Part shown: one piece after another, positions 36,395-53,262 of the stretch
How positions within the stretch are numbered: position 1 is the first letter of the stretch
How the letters are laid out: each line of letters starts with the position of its first letter
Assembly (NCBI GenBank): GCA_018238545.1
Contig: JABCTC010000016.1
Span: 1-64,000, forward strand
DNA from: Candidatus Heimdallarchaeota archaeon
GTDB lineage: Archaea; Asgardarchaeota; Heimdallarchaeia; Heimdallarchaeales; Heimdallarchaeaceae
DNA: 64,000 nucleotides
Direction: 5' to 3'
The notes under the pieces: model-generated
What the model was told of the DNA's origin: nothing
What the model saw: only the letters and a program-made list of their open reading frames with translations
Database searches by the model: none
Program-made: the position numbers and the translations under genes

Positions 36395-37048
36395 TTAATC
36401 TTCACTCATTTTTTTCTTCAACGATTCAAGCTCTTCTTCAAGATCTGATGTGTCTTCTTCCTTTTCACCTGAGACACCAGCTGGTGTTACGGGTAATCCA
36501 GAAATATCGGGCAAACTTGTTGTTGTTCCAAGATCCATTTCAGCCTCTAGCTGTGCTAATTGATCATCAATAGCAGCATCATCTTCAAAATCTAGAATTC
36601 CTTCTGATAAACTTGGATCAGATAGTGCTTCAGTCATCATTTCAATTTGATCACGTTGTTCCATAACTGTATCCATAACGCGTTCTGTACGTTCTGGAGA
36701 TACTTGCTTGATTTTCTCGCCAACTACTTTTGTGCCAATTTCCATTGCTTTAACAGTATCAGCAGTTGATGTTGCTGTTTGGATACCATCTATCTGAGCT
36801 TGAAGGTTCATAACAGTATTATGAAGAGAGTTGAGACGTTTCATGAAAACTGCTCTTCTTTTGAGGGCTGATCTTGCTCCAGCTTTATTGCCAGTTTGAA
36901 GCATTTTAGCAGCTAATATTTTCTGCTCATCTGCTTGTCTTTCAAGATTTCTTGCCTCATGTTCCATTCTATTCATTTGTGCCTTGAGTGTTGAAAGAGC
37001 ATCAGCATCTTCCTTACGTTTTTTGCCAAAGAGCCAATTTTTAACCAT
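36395..37048 (-). CDS. ESCRT-III, Vps20/Vps32(Snf7)/Vps60 class
   Basis: WLFGKK amphipathic N-terminus, GNKAGARSALKRR, acidic C-terminal half. Confidence 0.92.
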   Translation of the reverse strand: MVKNWLFGKKRKEDADALSTLKAQMNRMEHEARNLERQADEQKILAAKMLQTGNKAGARSALKRRAVFMKRLNSLHNTVMNLQAQIDGIQTATSTADTVKAMEIGTKVVGEKIKQVSPERTERVMDTVMEQRDQIEMMTEALSDPSLSEGILDFEDDAAIDDQLAQLEAEMDLGTTTSLPDISGLPVTPAGVSGEKEEDTSDLEEELESLKKKMSED

Positions 37049-37062
37049 TATTTATCACCTAT

Positions 37063-37677
37063 TTAATCTTCTTCTCTTTTTCTTAGCTTTTGGATTTCTT
37101 GTTCTAAATCATCTGTTTCTACAACACCTACAGAAGGCAATCCTGCTTGTGTTGAGACACCTAATTCAACAGCTGTTTTTTCTATTAAACGATCTACTTC
37201 AGCTGGATCAGTGTCTGAAATCAATAAATCATCTATACCATCCTCAATAGTACCAGTAGATTCCTCAATACCATCAATAGAACCTTCCATATCCTGGATT
37301 ACTCTATCTAAATCTGGTATTTGTAACTGTTCATTAGCTGCTCTGAGAGCGGATGCTACACCGTGCATTTCTGCCGCCATACTGGCAGCAGTATCTGATC
37401 GTTCGAGTTTGAAAATTAAACCGTTTATTCTAGATACTAATTTTTGATATCCAAATTCCCAACGTTGATTTCGAACAATATCTGTAGCAAACAATCTCGC
37501 AGACTCTAAATCTCCTCGTTGAATACTTTGTTTCATTTTCAATTGCATCTTAGATTCGTCACGTTCAAGCTTTCTTTGAGCTCTTTCTAATCGACGAACA
37601 GTTAATCTTAGATTTACTATGTGGTCACGAGGGTTTTTCTTTGAACCCAATAGCCATCCCATAAAATTTCCGAACAT
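37063..37677 (-). CDS. ESCRT-III, Vps2/Vps24/Vps46 class
   Basis: LRLTVRRLER, GDLESARLFATDIVR, MIM1-like C-terminal helix. Confidence 0.92.
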   Translation of the reverse strand: MFGNFMGWLLGSKKNPRDHIVNLRLTVRRLERAQRKLERDESKMQLKMKQSIQRGDLESARLFATDIVRNQRWEFGYQKLVSRINGLIFKLERSDTAASMAAEMHGVASALRAANEQLQIPDLDRVIQDMEGSIDGIEESTGTIEDGIDDLLISDTDPAEVDRLIEKTAVELGVSTQAGLPSVGVVETDDLEQEIQKLRKREED

Positions 37678-37828: not shown

Positions 37829-38140
37829 ATGCTCATGAATAAAAAAACAGCAAAATTAGCAGTGATAATCTTTAGCATTGCCGGAGCTATAATGTTGATG
37901 TCGACAGGTGTTCTTGCACAAGATCCCCCATCGGATAATTATTTAAAACCAATTGGAGCAGCCCTTGCAATAGGGATTGCTGGAGCAGCAGCAGCAATAG
38001 CAATGGGAATGGCAGGAAGTGCTGCAATAGGTGCCATAGTTGAAAATCCTGAATTATTCGGAAAAGCTTTTCTCTTCATTGTACTTATTGAAGCGGTAGC
38101 TATTTATGGGCTGCTTGTGGCAATTCTGATAGTATTCTAA
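37829..38140 (+). CDS. atpK: A/V-type ATPase proteolipid subunit c/K (single hairpin, with signal peptide)
   Basis: GAALAIGIAG, ENPELFGK, IEAVAIYGL (ion-binding Glu). Confidence 0.93.
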   Translation: MLMNKKTAKLAVIIFSIAGAIMLMSTGVLAQDPPSDNYLKPIGAALAIGIAGAAAAIAMGMAGSAAIGAIVENPELFGKAFLFIVLIEAVAIYGLLVAILIVF

Positions 38141-43850: not shown

Positions 43851-44050
43851 GATATGGTTAAATATGTTATCTAATAAAATGTTTCCATTTTTTCTGTTTT
43901 TCTTTCATTTTAAATATAATTGATTATTAGTGGTAGTTTTCTGTTATCATATGTTAGCACGATAGTTTAACTTATTCCCGTTTTCTGGTTTCAATAAACT
44001 TAATAGTATAACGTTTGTTAATAATTAACTAGAAGGAACTGGTGAACATA

Positions 44051-44437
44051 ATGTCTATAGATTTAACAGCATCACAAAAAAAACAATTAGTTAAAATACT
44101 GAAACAAATTTCATTAGGTTGCGATTTAGAGGCGTTAGCTGTCGTTAATGCAGAAGGTATCAAAGTTGCATTTTTTTCGGAGAAGGGAACAGATCCTGAT
44201 TTACTCAGTGCGGTCTCTTCAGCGGTACTTTCCACAGGAAAAATGGTAACTAGTAATTTAGAGCATGGTATTTTAGAGCTAGTATTAATAAGAGGAGAAG
44301 AAGGTTTCACAATATTAGCAGGTGCATCAGATTATATATTAATAGGCGCTAGCAGGGATTTACACAATGTTGGACTAGCTATGCAAGTTATTAAGCGATA
44401 TGTGCCAGAAACAATAGAAGCTTTGTCGGAAAACTAA
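44051..44437 (+). CDS. Roadblock/LC7 domain protein
   Basis: ALAVVNAEG, LLSAVSSAVLSTG, VLIRGEEGFTIL, NVGL. Confidence 0.88.
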   Translation: MSIDLTASQKKQLVKILKQISLGCDLEALAVVNAEGIKVAFFSEKGTDPDLLSAVSSAVLSTGKMVTSNLEHGILELVLIRGEEGFTILAGASDYILIGASRDLHNVGLAMQVIKRYVPETIEALSEN

Positions 44438-44479: not shown

Positions 44480-45472
44480 CTAGAAAATCCCATAAAATAG
44501 TAGATTGTCTCTAATTTCGGATTCAGCAAATCCTGCACTTACTCCAACAATTATTCTGATAACATCCATTACTTCTGCAAGTTTTAATTCAAAGAATCCT
44601 ATTAAAGCATCTGTTTCAAATACAGTTCCAAATCTAAAGGTCTTTTTCCAATATTTTAGCAAGTATTTCTCAACAGCAAATTCGAGGTCATGCAAAGGAA
44701 TATCTTTTGCATTAATGTATCTTGAAAAAACAGCCTTATACGGTTGATAATTATACTTTGAAAGTACTTCCGAAACACTAGTAGATTTCAGAGCTTTAGC
44801 TATAAACTTATTTGGCAGGATGTATCTATATGCAGGTATTCCCAAAGTTATACATCTAGAAAGAGCTAGGATGTTTTTCATGTTAACATATGTTTCATAT
44901 TTGTGAGAAACTTTTGGAAGTGTAGTATAGATATATTGATCTATTGCAGACTCTATAGGAGTGAAGCGTTCAGTTTCTTCAAATTCAATGTAAGCTTCCC
45001 GTAATTGCTTTTGAAGATTTGAATCTTTTTGAGATGAGATAATTTTAGTTATGGGCATCAAAAGTAGTTTAGTATAATAATCTATGGTGTAGCCAGCTAC
45101 AGGTACAATACGGGTCATAATATCATCATGTTTCATTCCTACATGAATGCCTTGTAATATTATTCGTAAATTTTCTGCGTTGTATCTTTCACTAAACAGT
45201 CTAATTTTCTTCTTAACTGAAGATGATGTTTGATTATAAAACTTAACTAATAGTTCAGCGAAATTTGTTTTTAGTTTCCTTGCAACATCTTCAAGTTGTG
45301 TTTCGAAGTTAAGATGTCCTATTATGGAATCATATCTTGTTTGGGTAAATGCTGCTCTTAGTTCCTTAAGATTTTTGGAGGATAATAAAAGACTCAATTG
45401 GGACTTTGTAAGTACATTCCCAACTATCCCATGAGCCCTGCCTAGTAGATAACTTATATCACCGAACGACAT
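44480..45472 (-). CDS. atpC: A/V-type ATPase subunit C (d/AC39 family)
   Basis: YLLGRAHG...LT, YNAENLRIIL, KLAEVMDVIRII; directly downstream of atpI. Confidence 0.8.
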   Translation of the reverse strand: MSFGDISYLLGRAHGIVGNVLTKSQLSLLLSSKNLKELRAAFTQTRYDSIIGHLNFETQLEDVARKLKTNFAELLVKFYNQTSSSVKKKIRLFSERYNAENLRIILQGIHVGMKHDDIMTRIVPVAGYTIDYYTKLLLMPITKIISSQKDSNLQKQLREAYIEFEETERFTPIESAIDQYIYTTLPKVSHKYETYVNMKNILALSRCITLGIPAYRYILPNKFIAKALKSTSVSEVLSKYNYQPYKAVFSRYINAKDIPLHDLEFAVEKYLLKYWKKTFRFGTVFETDALIGFFELKLAEVMDVIRIIVGVSAGFAESEIRDNLLFYGIF

Positions 45473-45473
45473 T

Positions 45474-48400
45474 TCAACTACCTTTTGCTGGTACTAATTC
45501 GATAAAGGATAGATTTTCTTTAAGAGGGGTGTAAATTTTGCCATCACCGACATAGAATTTTGAGAAAAATTCTACCCAATGAAGCCTTAAAGTATTCAAG
45601 AAGGACAATAAACCTTCGATAGGCACAATTATGAATAGGCCCATTGCTATTCCAACAACCCACCATAGCCAAGATTGAGCTAGTGGTGCCACTAATACTA
45701 CTGGTGTTAATGCTTCAAGAGGAAAACCAAGGGTCATAATTACAGAAGAGACAGTTATCATATTGTCTATTCCTGTAAGAGTAAATGGTAACGCGCTTAA
45801 AATTGCATGAACTAGAAGCAATGCCATGATTCGGCTGAAGGATAAGGTATTGGAAACAAGAGCAATTATATGATCAACTGCATCCATAATACCATCTGAC
45901 TTTGCGTGAATATATTCAAGAACAAACAATACAGGAACCAAGCCTACCAGAAAGATAGCCCAAGAGGGGAACAAAGGCAATGTCCAATGATCTACATTTA
46001 AGATTATTGCAACGAAATGAGATTGAACACCATCTGCCATGATATTATATAGCATTGCAAATATTCCAATGTATACTATTGAAAGTGTTAATGGAGCACC
46101 CCATGAGGCAAAACCATGCCCATACTTAATGTTTTGATAGATTTTCAACCATATTCCGATTTGAATGATAAGGAAACCAAGAAGTAAAGCGACAACAAGA
46201 AGCAATTTAGTTTCATGTAATGGATTAACTAAAGGTATCCAGTTAATGCTAATACTGTGAAAAAGATGAGGTAAGAATTCTTCATCACCCAATAAAGATC
46301 CAAACAATATTCCAAAGAATGCTGCTGCTGAGCCACAGAAAATTAATAACTCGCTACCGGAATATAGATACCCTGATATTGATTCACTAGGTTGAATCTT
46401 CTTCCTTCGTTTTCTAATAGCAAGAAATGCACCTATTAAAGCAAGCATTATACCATGTCCTAAATCAGCAAACATGACACCGAAAAGTAAAGGAAAAGTG
46501 AATTTCATGACATTGTAGGGGTCAACCTCATGAGGATTTGGTTGACCTATTCCCCCAATAATTCCTCCAATAGCACCAAATAATTTACCTCTTTTTGTAA
46601 TAGATGGATTTGGAAGAGGTACCTTGTCTGTAATAGTTATATTAATCTTAAAATTCAATTCTTTTTCTTTTTCAAATAGGGGTTCCATGGCAAAACTTGG
46701 AATCCAGCCCCATAAAATCACTTTACCTTCAGAAACTTGACAGATTTCTTCTGTAGTAATCCTATCCAATTCTACAGAGATTAGTTCTTCAACTGCAGCT
46801 ATTCTATCATTGGTTTCTTTAGTAAGTTCGGTTAATCTATTTTCCAATTGCTCAATATTCAGAGTGAGTTCATTCTTTTTGTTTTCGAGTGAATCTTCTT
46901 GCTGAAGTAATTCTATATCATATTCGATTGGTTGAAAAGTATATTCATTCAATACTCTGGAGATTGCTGTCTTATATTCCTTTAGCGCCAAAATAAACAA
47001 ATTCTTCTCGCTCTTTTTTGAACCTAAAGACTCTGTTGCCCAGAACATTATATTGCTATTTGTAACTTCATTTAAAAAGAACTTAACCGCTTTGAGATGG
47101 TTCTTTGGAATTGAACCCAAGAATGTAACTGTTTGAGAACCTCCTTCAGATAACATGAATTCCATACCTTCACCCTTCATCACTTCTATTGTAGGGAGAA
47201 ATAATTCAAGCTGATTTATTTCTTTTTTCAATTGATTGTATTCTGTGAAGGTTGTTTCAACTTCTTTCTCGTAATTATTAAGAAAGTTCTCTATAAATGC
47301 TTTAGAATGAGCTAAATCGTCAACAATTTGGAATTGTTCACAAGAATTTTCATCTGATTTCTTTAGATTTAACATCTCTCTGATTTTCTTTACTCTTGCA
47401 TGATATTGTGTAAATTCTATACGTCTCTTGGTAATAGAATCAATTGTAATAGTGTCCAAAGAACCAATCTTTACTGGATGAATTGAATTCAAAGAACGAA
47501 TAAATGAGATAAGCTGACGGGTGTATTTACTTTTAGTCACCATTTTTACAAAAGAAGCTTTTTTCGGGAAAAATGGTCCACCTTCAGGTTCAACTCCCCT
47601 ATGAGACAAGCTTGGTACATGTTTCTCCTTTTCTTTTTGAATCATTTCAGGTTTTGCTATTTTCAGCTCATCATCCTCTTTCTTTGTTTTCTTATATGAA
47701 AATGGAACATCATCAAGTACAGAAAATTTAGGCTGAATCTTCAGTGATTCTATGTCATTTACAAAAGTTTCGTAATTTTTATTCGTTACCCATCCCCAGA
47801 TTGTAAACATTTCTTCATCTGTTCGACCTTTTTCTTCTATTGTTTGAAGAATGATTTCGGTTTTTATTGAATCAATGTAGAAAACAATTGTCTTGGTTAG
47901 GTCTACTAAGTATCCTTCTAATTTTTGTTCTATTTTTTCCAATTCAGAATTTATCATGGAATATAGATCACTTACTGTTGTCGAAGATGTATAATCTTCA
48001 ATAGTTTTGAGTGACGATAAGTCTAAATTTGTAGGTTCAAAATGATTTTGTTCAAGAAGTTCTTCTACATTTTCTTTTAAGTCCATTAAGGAAATACAGA
48101 TTATTGTTTTGGTTTTCCTTCCTTCAGTTGCGACACTCCATAAAAATATCTTTCCACCAGTAATTTCATTTAAATAAAAACGAATTAGTTCTTCATAGGA
48201 TGAAGGAATTTCACCGTAAATAGTAAATGTTTTGGAATTGGAAGATAGAAGATCAATTGTAAATTTATCTTTCTCAATTTGACGTTTGAATTTGTTTAAA
48301 CCTGCAAGGATACGCTCTTCCTTCTTTAATTGCTTATGTTTGGTAACTTGAATTGATATTGCTTCTTCATGTTGGTCAATAAACGATTCTATTTCACTTT

Positions 48401-48671
48401 GCAGTGTTGAAACGTCTAAGATTTTCTCAAAAGAGTATTTCTCTTCTGCTGCAAAATCATCAAAAGGTATTTTGATTAAATTCCCTATCTTCACCAAGCG
48501 AAAGAAACAATTTTCAAGTTTATCCTTCGTTTCTTGTATTCTTGCTTGCTCTTTTGGACTTTGAGGATCTACTATAATCTGGTCATAGTAATCTAAAGTA
48601 ACAATTTTTCTAAGTAAGTTTAAGGTATTGTCCTTTGGAACCTGTATTTTAGATAAAACGACTTTTGCCAT
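45474..48671 (-). CDS. atpI: A/V-type ATPase subunit I/a, extended by a duplicated N-terminal domain
   Basis: EVDP, FPLLFGVMFADLGHG, SNTLSFSRIMAL (essential Arg), LRLHWVEFFSKFY. Confidence 0.93.
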   Translation of the reverse strand: MAKVVLSKIQVPKDNTLNLLRKIVTLDYYDQIIVDPQSPKEQARIQETKDKLENCFFRLVKIGNLIKIPFDDFAAEEKYSFEKILDVSTLQSEIESFIDQHEEAISIQVTKHKQLKKEERILAGLNKFKRQIEKDKFTIDLLSSNSKTFTIYGEIPSSYEELIRFYLNEITGGKIFLWSVATEGRKTKTIICISLMDLKENVEELLEQNHFEPTNLDLSSLKTIEDYTSSTTVSDLYSMINSELEKIEQKLEGYLVDLTKTIVFYIDSIKTEIILQTIEEKGRTDEEMFTIWGWVTNKNYETFVNDIESLKIQPKFSVLDDVPFSYKKTKKEDDELKIAKPEMIQKEKEKHVPSLSHRGVEPEGGPFFPKKASFVKMVTKSKYTRQLISFIRSLNSIHPVKIGSLDTITIDSITKRRIEFTQYHARVKKIREMLNLKKSDENSCEQFQIVDDLAHSKAFIENFLNNYEKEVETTFTEYNQLKKEINQLELFLPTIEVMKGEGMEFMLSEGGSQTVTFLGSIPKNHLKAVKFFLNEVTNSNIMFWATESLGSKKSEKNLFILALKEYKTAISRVLNEYTFQPIEYDIELLQQEDSLENKKNELTLNIEQLENRLTELTKETNDRIAAVEELISVELDRITTEEICQVSEGKVILWGWIPSFAMEPLFEKEKELNFKINITITDKVPLPNPSITKRGKLFGAIGGIIGGIGQPNPHEVDPYNVMKFTFPLLFGVMFADLGHGIMLALIGAFLAIRKRRKKIQPSESISGYLYSGSELLIFCGSAAAFFGILFGSLLGDEEFLPHLFHSISINWIPLVNPLHETKLLLVVALLLGFLIIQIGIWLKIYQNIKYGHGFASWGAPLTLSIVYIGIFAMLYNIMADGVQSHFVAIILNVDHWTLPLFPSWAIFLVGLVPVLFVLEYIHAKSDGIMDAVDHIIALVSNTLSFSRIMALLLVHAILSALPFTLTGIDNMITVSSVIMTLGFPLEALTPVVLVAPLAQSWLWWVVGIAMGLFIIVPIEGLLSFLNTLRLHWVEFFSKFYVGDGKIYTPLKENLSFIELVPAKGS

Positions 48672-52125: not shown

Positions 52126-53262
52126 TTGGAAGAGATGATACAAAACAAACCGCTTGTTATCGATAATGGTACGGGCTTTACCAAAAACGGTTTTGCTGGA
52201 GAAGATCAACCTAGAAGCGTTTTTCCAACGATCATTGGTTATCCTAAATATCAGATAATCATGACCGATGTAGAACATTACGTTCGCGAATATTACATAG
52301 GCGAAGAAGCTATCAACCTACGAGGTGTTTTGAAGCTTGTTTATCCTGTTGAGCATGGACAAGTTCAAGATTGGGATGCTATGGAACGCATTTGGCATTA
52401 TACTTTCTATAATGACTTACGTGTTAATCCTAATGAACATCCTATTCTGTTAACTGAACCTCCTTTGAATAAAAATCAAAACAAAGAGAAAATGGCAGAA
52501 TTAATGTTTGATACATTCAATGTACCTGCAATGTATATCTCAATGCAGGCTATTCTATCCCTATACGCATCAGGTCGTACAACTGGTATAGTTGTAGACT
52601 CTGGTGATGGTGTTACACACATTGTTCCTGTCTATGAAGGTTTCGCAATTGCTCACGCCATTCATCGTTCTGATATCGGTGGTCGTGATGTAACTGACTA
52701 TTTGAGAAGATTACTCCGACAACGTGGATATTCACTTTCTAGCAGTGCTGAGAGAGAAATTGTCCGTGACATTAAAGAACGTCTTTGCTATGTAGCTTTA
52801 GATCCTGAAAAAGAATTGAAGCTAGCTGAGAAAGTTTCTGGAATGGAAAAGACATACACTCTACCTGATGGTGAAACATTAACCATTGGTGCTGAGAGAT
52901 TCATGGCCCCTGAATTGTTCTTCAATCCTGGAGCTATTGGTTCTGAAGAGAATGCATTAGATGAATTAATTTACAGATCCATTCAAAACTGTGATGTCGA
53001 TCTTCGAAGAGATCTATACGCCAATATCGTATTATCAGGCGGATCTACAATGTTCCCAGGTCTAAAAGAACGTCTCCACAAGGAGCTTACTGAATTAGTA
53101 CCTGAAACAATGGAAGTAAAAATCATTGCCCCCCCTGAAAGAAGATATTCTGTTTGGATTGGTGGAAGTATCTTAAGTTCCCTTAAGACATTCGCAAAAC
53201 TGTGGGTTACCAAGAAAGAATACAAAGAAATTGGTGTTACCGCAGTTTACCGCTGTATCTAA
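52126..53262 (+). CDS. Actin (Asgard lokiactin-type)
   Basis: [71 protein letters not shown]. Confidence 0.97.

Follow-up and report, generated by a model that had tools for sequence, protein, structure and literature searches.

The atpI gene of this Heimdallarchaeaceae archaeon encodes an A/V-type ATPase subunit I/a with two soluble arms in tandem, an architecture that is genuine, shared across the family and new for subunit I. The gene lies in the window, by which we mean the whole analysed stretch of 64,000 nucleotides. Its reading frame is open over all 1065 aa without an internal stop, confirming the protein length given in an earlier note on this DNA. The protein matches the Pfam family PF01496 with 125.8 bits (cut-off 30.7). 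The usual architecture of this family contains one soluble domain, but two are present in atpI, which therefore represents a variant of subunit I/a. An alignment of 23 long subunit I sequences showed that the SFSR947 motif is invariant; with this motif and LRLHWVEFF both present, the membrane domain and its essential Arg are intact, as the note had said. The features are listed in Table 1, where R1 and R2 denote the first and second soluble domain and a-NT subunit a's N-terminal domain.

Table 1. Features of the atpI locus and its surroundings (positions in the window)
Feature	Position	Strand	Basis or remark
atpI, A/V-type ATPase subunit I/a with tandem soluble domains	45474..48671	(-)	1065 aa, PF01496 E 2e-36
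R1 (aa 1-323), complete extra a-NT domain	47703..48671	(-)	profile, AlphaFold2, Foldseek, VIA
DPQSP motif stretch specific to R1 (aa 29-46): loop plus beginning of a helix in the proximal lobe	48534..48587	(-)	conservation
Linker (aa 324-364)	47580..47702	(-)	length kept, sequence variable
R2 (aa 365-685), membrane-proximal a-NT	46617..47579	(-)	fold models, conservation
KIGSLD loop of R2 (aa 401-406)	47454..47471	(-)	resembles K(I/V)GTLD of the eukaryotic subunit C foot
Membrane domain (aa 686-1065), LRLHWVEFF	45477..46616	(-)	Pfam, alignment
Essential Arg947 of the atpI membrane domain	45831-45833	(-)	SFSR947
atpC, subunit C in the prokaryotic naming (rotor cup, d/AC39 of eukaryotes; distinct from V1 subunit C)	44480..45472	(-)	
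atpK, single-hairpin proteolipid without Na+ motif (putative H+ type)	37829..38140	(+)	probable partner in the same enzyme

Individual alignment of the R1 half (1-330) with the R2 half (360-700) showed 25% identity over 279 aa (BLASTP, E 5e-19). The local alignment of R1 and R2 scored 228, compared to 46 +/- 8 for shuffled sequences (maximum 80), and the family profiles of the two domains matched each other with a probability of 100% (E 1.1e-42, 320 columns). AlphaFold2 models, with a pLDDT of 87.6 for R1 and 82.5 for R2, displayed an identical order of strands and helices. A VIA comparison aligned roughly 300 residues of each model with N-terminal domains from subunit a (Z 18.4 for R1 and 18.3 for R2); in the alignment of R2 with 9B8Q chain a, 307 residues were aligned (rmsd 5.3 A, Z 18.3). 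As judged from these predicted models, both repeats are full two-lobed N-terminal folds of subunit a/I. The claim that the soluble N-terminal region occurs twice is thus borne out by self-alignment, profiles and predicted folds alike. The motif pair FTIWGWVT and VILWGWIP, which had been placed near 47798 and 46712, was found at 47784-47807 and 46698-46721, with the expected 362 codons between W292 and W654, and the connecting linker is charged and proline-containing as described (Lys/Glu-rich in its first half, Pro/His/Gly-rich in its second). Pfam did not detect R1, which may be why the domain has been overlooked. PDB sequence searches with the R1 profile, the R2 profile and the R2 loop revealed no significant match.

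The double domain is present in 27 of 29 Heimdallarchaeaceae relatives, which represent four genera; the close relatives are labelled Heimdallarchaeota or Heimdallarchaeaceae. No atpI orthologue was found in the remaining two, whose genomes are 82% and 89% complete. Two family genomes (G015 and G016) are closed, as single contigs of 3,081,793 and 3,326,783 bp. In all complete family members R1 is fused to the rest of subunit I, and the length of the long subunit varies from 1042 to 1076 aa, compared to 681-730 aa for single-domain orthologues within the order. The I-C gene pair is also present in the order's other families, there with a single-domain I, and a second domain copy was not found in the other Asgard families sampled, a survey that is weak for distant families. 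A 1059-aa protein with the NCBI label Thorarchaeota (P0016) matches the length of the protein from G037:C26, a genome that GTDB places in the window's genus, and probably derives from a mislabelled bin. Values of dN/dS were 0.11-0.29 for R1 and similar for R2, and no DNA-level repeat is left between the R1 and R2 coding regions. An assembly chimera or a decaying duplication has a negligible probability: a single TAA lies within R1 in one genome (G021:C79:113-1087; 78% complete; a sequencing error or a broken gene), but against this reading stand the 27 genomes, including the two closed ones, the missing DNA repeat and dN/dS values below 0.3. Since the architecture is common to 27 other genomes and no DNA repeat remains, a chimera, already considered unlikely in the note, is excluded. 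The duplication is old and maintained under purifying selection.

To place the duplication, we used a tree of 57 soluble domains, from which subunit C (unalignable by sequence) and the eukaryotic subunit a were left out. R1 and R2 formed one clade (support 95/95) next to the single-domain orthologues, and the internal branching was similar within R1 and within R2. An AU test, based on a quick tree from which the long-branch rows of the second operon had been removed, rejected a topology in which R2 groups with the sister families and R1 stands outside (p=0.0002). The clade and this rejection therefore place the tandem duplication of the soluble arm on the Heimdallarchaeaceae stem, where it happened once. 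Eukaryotes are placed as sister to Hodarchaeales and not within Heimdallarchaeaceae (PMC10307638), so the long subunit I is no direct intermediate, unless genes moved sideways. The earlier note had proposed an intermediate between A- and V-type architecture; this is not supported, given the origin on the stem of the family and the one domain in the other Asgard families sampled.

A search for structural relatives with Foldseek matched eukaryotic subunit C for both repeats (best E 1.5e-7 for R1 and 1.3e-8 for R2), in agreement with the note's remark that subunit C resembles a-NT in structure. The TM values were 0.23-0.34 for R1 and 0.23-0.31 for R2, compared to values of up to 0.69 and 0.62 for subunit a. 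For R1 against 1U7L (E 1.5e-7, TM 0.23) the head-neck-foot fold is related to that of a-NT, and likewise for R2. Among the VIA matches listed, subunit C chains were present for R2 (Z 9.3 and 8.7) and not among the 50 for R1. The profile comparison with Vma5/ATP6V1C that had been suggested in the note gave hhalign probabilities below 4% for R1 (0.6%), R2 and all control groups, and the global alignments are meaningless; the R1 profile matched single-domain orthologues with E 1e-23. Compared with R2 and other a-NT domains, R1 shows no greater closeness to subunit C, which is half of the outcome that the note itself had counted against its reading. PF03223 did not match R1 of the query and was absent from the 25 families listed for 38 R1 sequences; in 82 Heimdallarchaeia genomes no match exceeded the cut-off. 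The subunit C foot motif K(I/V)G(T/S)LD, present in 111 of 119 subunit C homologues, is missing from R1, where DPQSP stands instead. These homologues, mostly fungal, came from a separate search; the pattern-derived seed set was excluded since its pattern contained the motif. R1 thus does not belong to the subunit C family but was copied from a-NT. An assignment of R1 as V-ATPase subunit C (PF03223) was considered and rejected, as it is fused and has neither the profile match nor the foot motif.

The C-like loop is found in R2. A structural alignment of R2 with human subunit C (model 38 with chain 44) starts about at the KIG loop, and K(I/V)G occurs at this loop of R2 in 49 of 52 family proteins and in 0 of 58 single-domain controls. 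Part of the match is a generic helix cap and basal family members display K(I/V)G.Q; the likeness is therefore read as convergence or chance, and the sequence offers a lead only. R1 as a surviving precursor of the eukaryotic subunit C, and so a true A-to-V intermediate, is largely refuted and highly improbable. The Asgard origin, the common fold and the C-like loop in R2 would be in keeping with it, but the R1+R2 clade and the AU test speak against an R1 older than the family split, other Asgard families are without the duplication, eukaryotes are placed as sister to Hodarchaeales, outside Heimdallarchaeaceae (PMC10307638), profile similarity to subunit C is lacking, and the K(I/V)G.Q of the basal members makes the SLD part of the match look recent.

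The two copies diverged unequally. In the 57-domain tree the stem branch of R1 (1.21) is fourfold longer than that of R2 (0.30); the conservation after the stems is similar (R1: 45%, R2: 49%). A stretch of the distal lobe is conserved in both repeats (59% and 67%), with T, G, IP, F, E, W, L, F and D as common positions. The proximal lobe of R2 retains the ancestral LFP-type start together with R385, E629, E634 and R637; R1 has lost this start and the equivalents of these four residues, which are conserved in outgroups. R1 retains a VD(P) loop and a G-R-T motif and has gained the near-invariant DPQSP motif. The corresponding stretch (aa 29-46) showed 71% mean identity in R1, the highest conservation of any soluble stretch measured, and 41% in R2. 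The linker (P323 to F368) comprises 42-47 aa in 23/23 proteins with variable sequence, and such a fixed length would be expected of a spacer. The EG-contact stretch mapped from yeast residues 347-369 is equally variable in R1 (26%) and R2 (27%) and does not discriminate between them.

The source genome contains two A/V-ATPase sets, one dispersed and one clustered on contig C39. The dispersed set comprises I and C at the 45-kb locus, K (Table 1), A, B, F and a probable G on C102, and E on C18. A, B, C(d), E, F and K were identified by Pfam; the candidate G has no Pfam G match and was assigned from its position beside F, its size and its conservation. Subunit D of the dispersed set was not located in the genome. 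The clustered operon (L001:8982-19834) encodes an I of the usual form (676 aa), which lies on a very long branch, a double-hairpin K with Glu in both hairpins and an A subunit with a LAGLIDADG intein. An unrelated 126-aa gene lies between its D and E genes, and G and C are on opposite strands. This operon is present in the source genome and many g1 genomes and absent from the closed genomes. In the closed genomes and also in G011 the long I is the only subunit I, alongside one A, one B and one E, and therefore serves the housekeeping enzyme. No free copy of the soluble domain was found in the closed genomes. The subunit A open frames of G015:C1 and G016:C1 measure 1096 aa and probably contain inteins. 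The K of the dispersed set is a single hairpin without the Na+ motif as defined in 10.64898/2026.10.01.756066, which suggests H+ coupling; the sequences thus point to a housekeeping A-type ATP synthase coupled to H+.

In the window, atpC begins 1 bp after atpI, and the two genes adjoin in 22 of 22 family loci; of 10 single-domain loci from the order, 9 show the same adjacency. In most family loci, closed genomes included, roadblock and actin genes (in the window at 44042-44437 and 52126-53262) are neighbours of atpI-atpC at a distance of a few kb. Two Snf7 (ESCRT-III) genes at 36395-37677 directly adjoin atpK.

An HMM search of 1.8 billion representatives for relatives of the long subunit I revealed six further proteins of 971-1011 aa (P0205, P0209, P0220, P0224, P0225 and P0238). 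They form a bacterial group that was missed by a word-index search, which returned the family only; the P0238 cluster is labelled Thermodesulfobacteriota/Desulfococcaceae. In these proteins the distal lobe of the host domain is interrupted by a whole a-NT domain (about aa 175-500), at the point of contact between subunit a and the C foot. In two operons (L327:4437-12180; L328:6635-17407) the gene order is G-C(d)-X-I-K-F-E-A-B-D. The X protein just upstream of I is a free-standing a-NT of 306-323 aa without a Pfam match, giving three a-NT domains per operon (two operons: L327; L328 and L329), and is possibly a prokaryotic analogue of subunit C. The bacterial domains matched among themselves with E 1e-30 to 1e-73 and to R1/R2 only with 1e-3 to 1e-8; this closer mutual likeness indicates an origin independent of R1 and R2. 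Prokaryotes have therefore extended the collar by copying a-NT on at least two occasions, an argument for the proposed function that also weakens a special link to eukaryotes. ESM Atlas clusters near R1 (score 0.93-0.94) contain proteins of 303-336 aa from Thermoplasmatota and Bacillota, which may represent either free-standing a-NT domains or one half of a split gene. At L330:6001-8019 subunit I is encoded by separate genes for a soluble part (343 aa) and a membrane part (322 aa), through a natural split or a frameshift, and adjoins an Mrp-type antiporter cluster.

The A3B3 head has three B subunits, which leaves one free site in the prokaryotic enzyme. In eukaryotes the two lobes of a-NT carry EG1 and EG2; subunit C attaches by its foot at EG2, docking at the a-NT head, and its own head holds EG3 (PMC6131620, PMC10352029). 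The best explanation, to which we give an even chance, sees in R1 an additional collar arm of convergent origin, able perhaps to hold a third EG stalk. R2, as its sequence suggests, would stay on the membrane domain and do the normal job, and R1 would be a tethered second collar arm. The distal lobe of R1, which keeps the shared conserved surface, would most likely bind the third EG stalk at the B subunit that is left free; the remodelled proximal lobe may dock on R2 or on a shared stalk, and the linker of fixed length would span the distance. R1 would then work like the eukaryotic subunit C, yet as a convergent invention, and being covalent it could not be released for regulation. Since the linker starts and ends at proximal lobes, several geometries are possible: R1 may occupy the subunit C position, dock with its distal lobe on the KIG loop of R2, or point away from a proximal-proximal joint.

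Several observations argue for such an extra arm. R1 is a second full arm, and its conserved distal and remodelled proximal lobe fit reaching the free site; it is kept in the family with low dN/dS and constant linker length, and belongs to the sole subunit I of three genomes. Its long stem was followed by conservation, with proximal residues lost and a motif gained. EG3 sits on the head of subunit C, which has the a-NT fold, and the bacterial operon type multiplied a-NT independently. On the other side, conservation of the distal lobe could mean folding or contact with the rotor (subunit d), the outgroup-conserved Arg/Glu residues are lost from R1, and the C-like loop belongs to R2. R1 ends, and R2 starts, in its proximal lobe, so the exact position of subunit C needs a linker run as long as an arm. 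A genome cannot give the stalk number. A predicted complex of R1 with the E N-terminus and the putative G, run without controls, scored 0.00 and weighs neither for nor against a third stalk. The functional idea of the earlier note, a covalent subunit-C-like arm with a possible third EG stalk, is plausible and our best guess. A three-stalk Heimdallarchaeaceae ATP synthase, with the collar extended independently here, in eukaryotes (by subunit C) and in bacteria, and with R2 converging on the C foot loop, is a more tentative proposal that falls somewhat short of an even chance.

Two stalks only, with R1 as a brace or brake on the rotor cup (d/C) or the head that regulates or stabilises the enzyme, in analogy to eukaryotic a-NT in free V0, is unlikely. 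In free V0, a-NT locks subunit d (PMC10352029). Subunit a of free V0 gives the best fit to the R1 model (rmsd 3.7-4.0 A, compared to 5.4-5.8 A for holoenzymes) and the R2 model differs little between states (4.7-5.5 A), but hinge angles in predicted models are not reliable; atpI always adjoins atpC, but this adjacency is ancestral and also seen with single-domain orthologues. Rather unlikely is a sharing out of two stalks, in which R1 takes over or reinforces one existing EG site. The VD(P) loop and G-R-T motif of R1 and the LFP start and Arg/Glu set of R2 would agree with such a division; however, both lobes of R2 are conserved at least as well as R1, and thus neither EG site looks abandoned. 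We consider it improbable that R1 is a docking platform for a partner outside the motor, such as ATPase dimers or rows or the cytoskeleton. The new R1 motif, the best conserved soluble stretch measured, and the actin and roadblock genes beside atpI-C in most family loci would suit a platform, but synteny alone proves no contact and the distal lobe would not need stalk-like conservation.

Prokaryotic subunit I (Thermus thermophilus 6R0Z, 6QUM and 5GAR; Meiothermus ruber I-NT 3RRK; PF01496) has in common with the Heimdallarchaeaceae protein the two-lobed soluble domain, the membrane domain with the essential Arg and the partners A, B, C(d), E, F and K, but has one soluble domain where the latter has two. 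The eukaryotic V-ATPase collar of subunits a and C (Vma5/ATP6V1C, PF03223, 1U7L) likewise contains two arms of a-NT fold per complex; however, subunit C is free-standing, whereas R1 is covalent, an in-family copy of R2 and without sequence or profile similarity to C. A 2026 preprint describes subunits C and H as eukaryote-specific (10.64898/2026.10.01.756066). The bacterial operons also carry extra soluble-domain copies in subunit I, but there the copy is nested in the distal lobe with a third free copy upstream, whereas the Heimdallarchaeaceae copy is in tandem. The F-ATP synthase of Chloroflexus aurantiacus, with two peripheral stalks, is another prokaryotic enzyme departing from the textbook count of its class; it is F-type with a second proton-conducting a subunit, in contrast to the double soluble arm and single channel of Heimdallarchaeaceae (PMC12002316). 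Most subscription papers lay outside our literature search, which found no description of the Asgard duplication or the bacterial nested form.

Rotary ATPases are classed by stalk number, with one stalk in F-type, two in prokaryotic A/V-type and three in eukaryotic V-type enzymes (PMC3639240). The Heimdallarchaeaceae duplication does not reveal the actual eukaryotic ancestor. If R1 holds a third stalk, however, a second collar arm in a prokaryote would break the rule of stalk number, and an origin of subunit C by copying of a-NT would become testable in living parallels. These could show which changes a copied a-NT undergoes, and whether a third stalk works without regulated disassembly.
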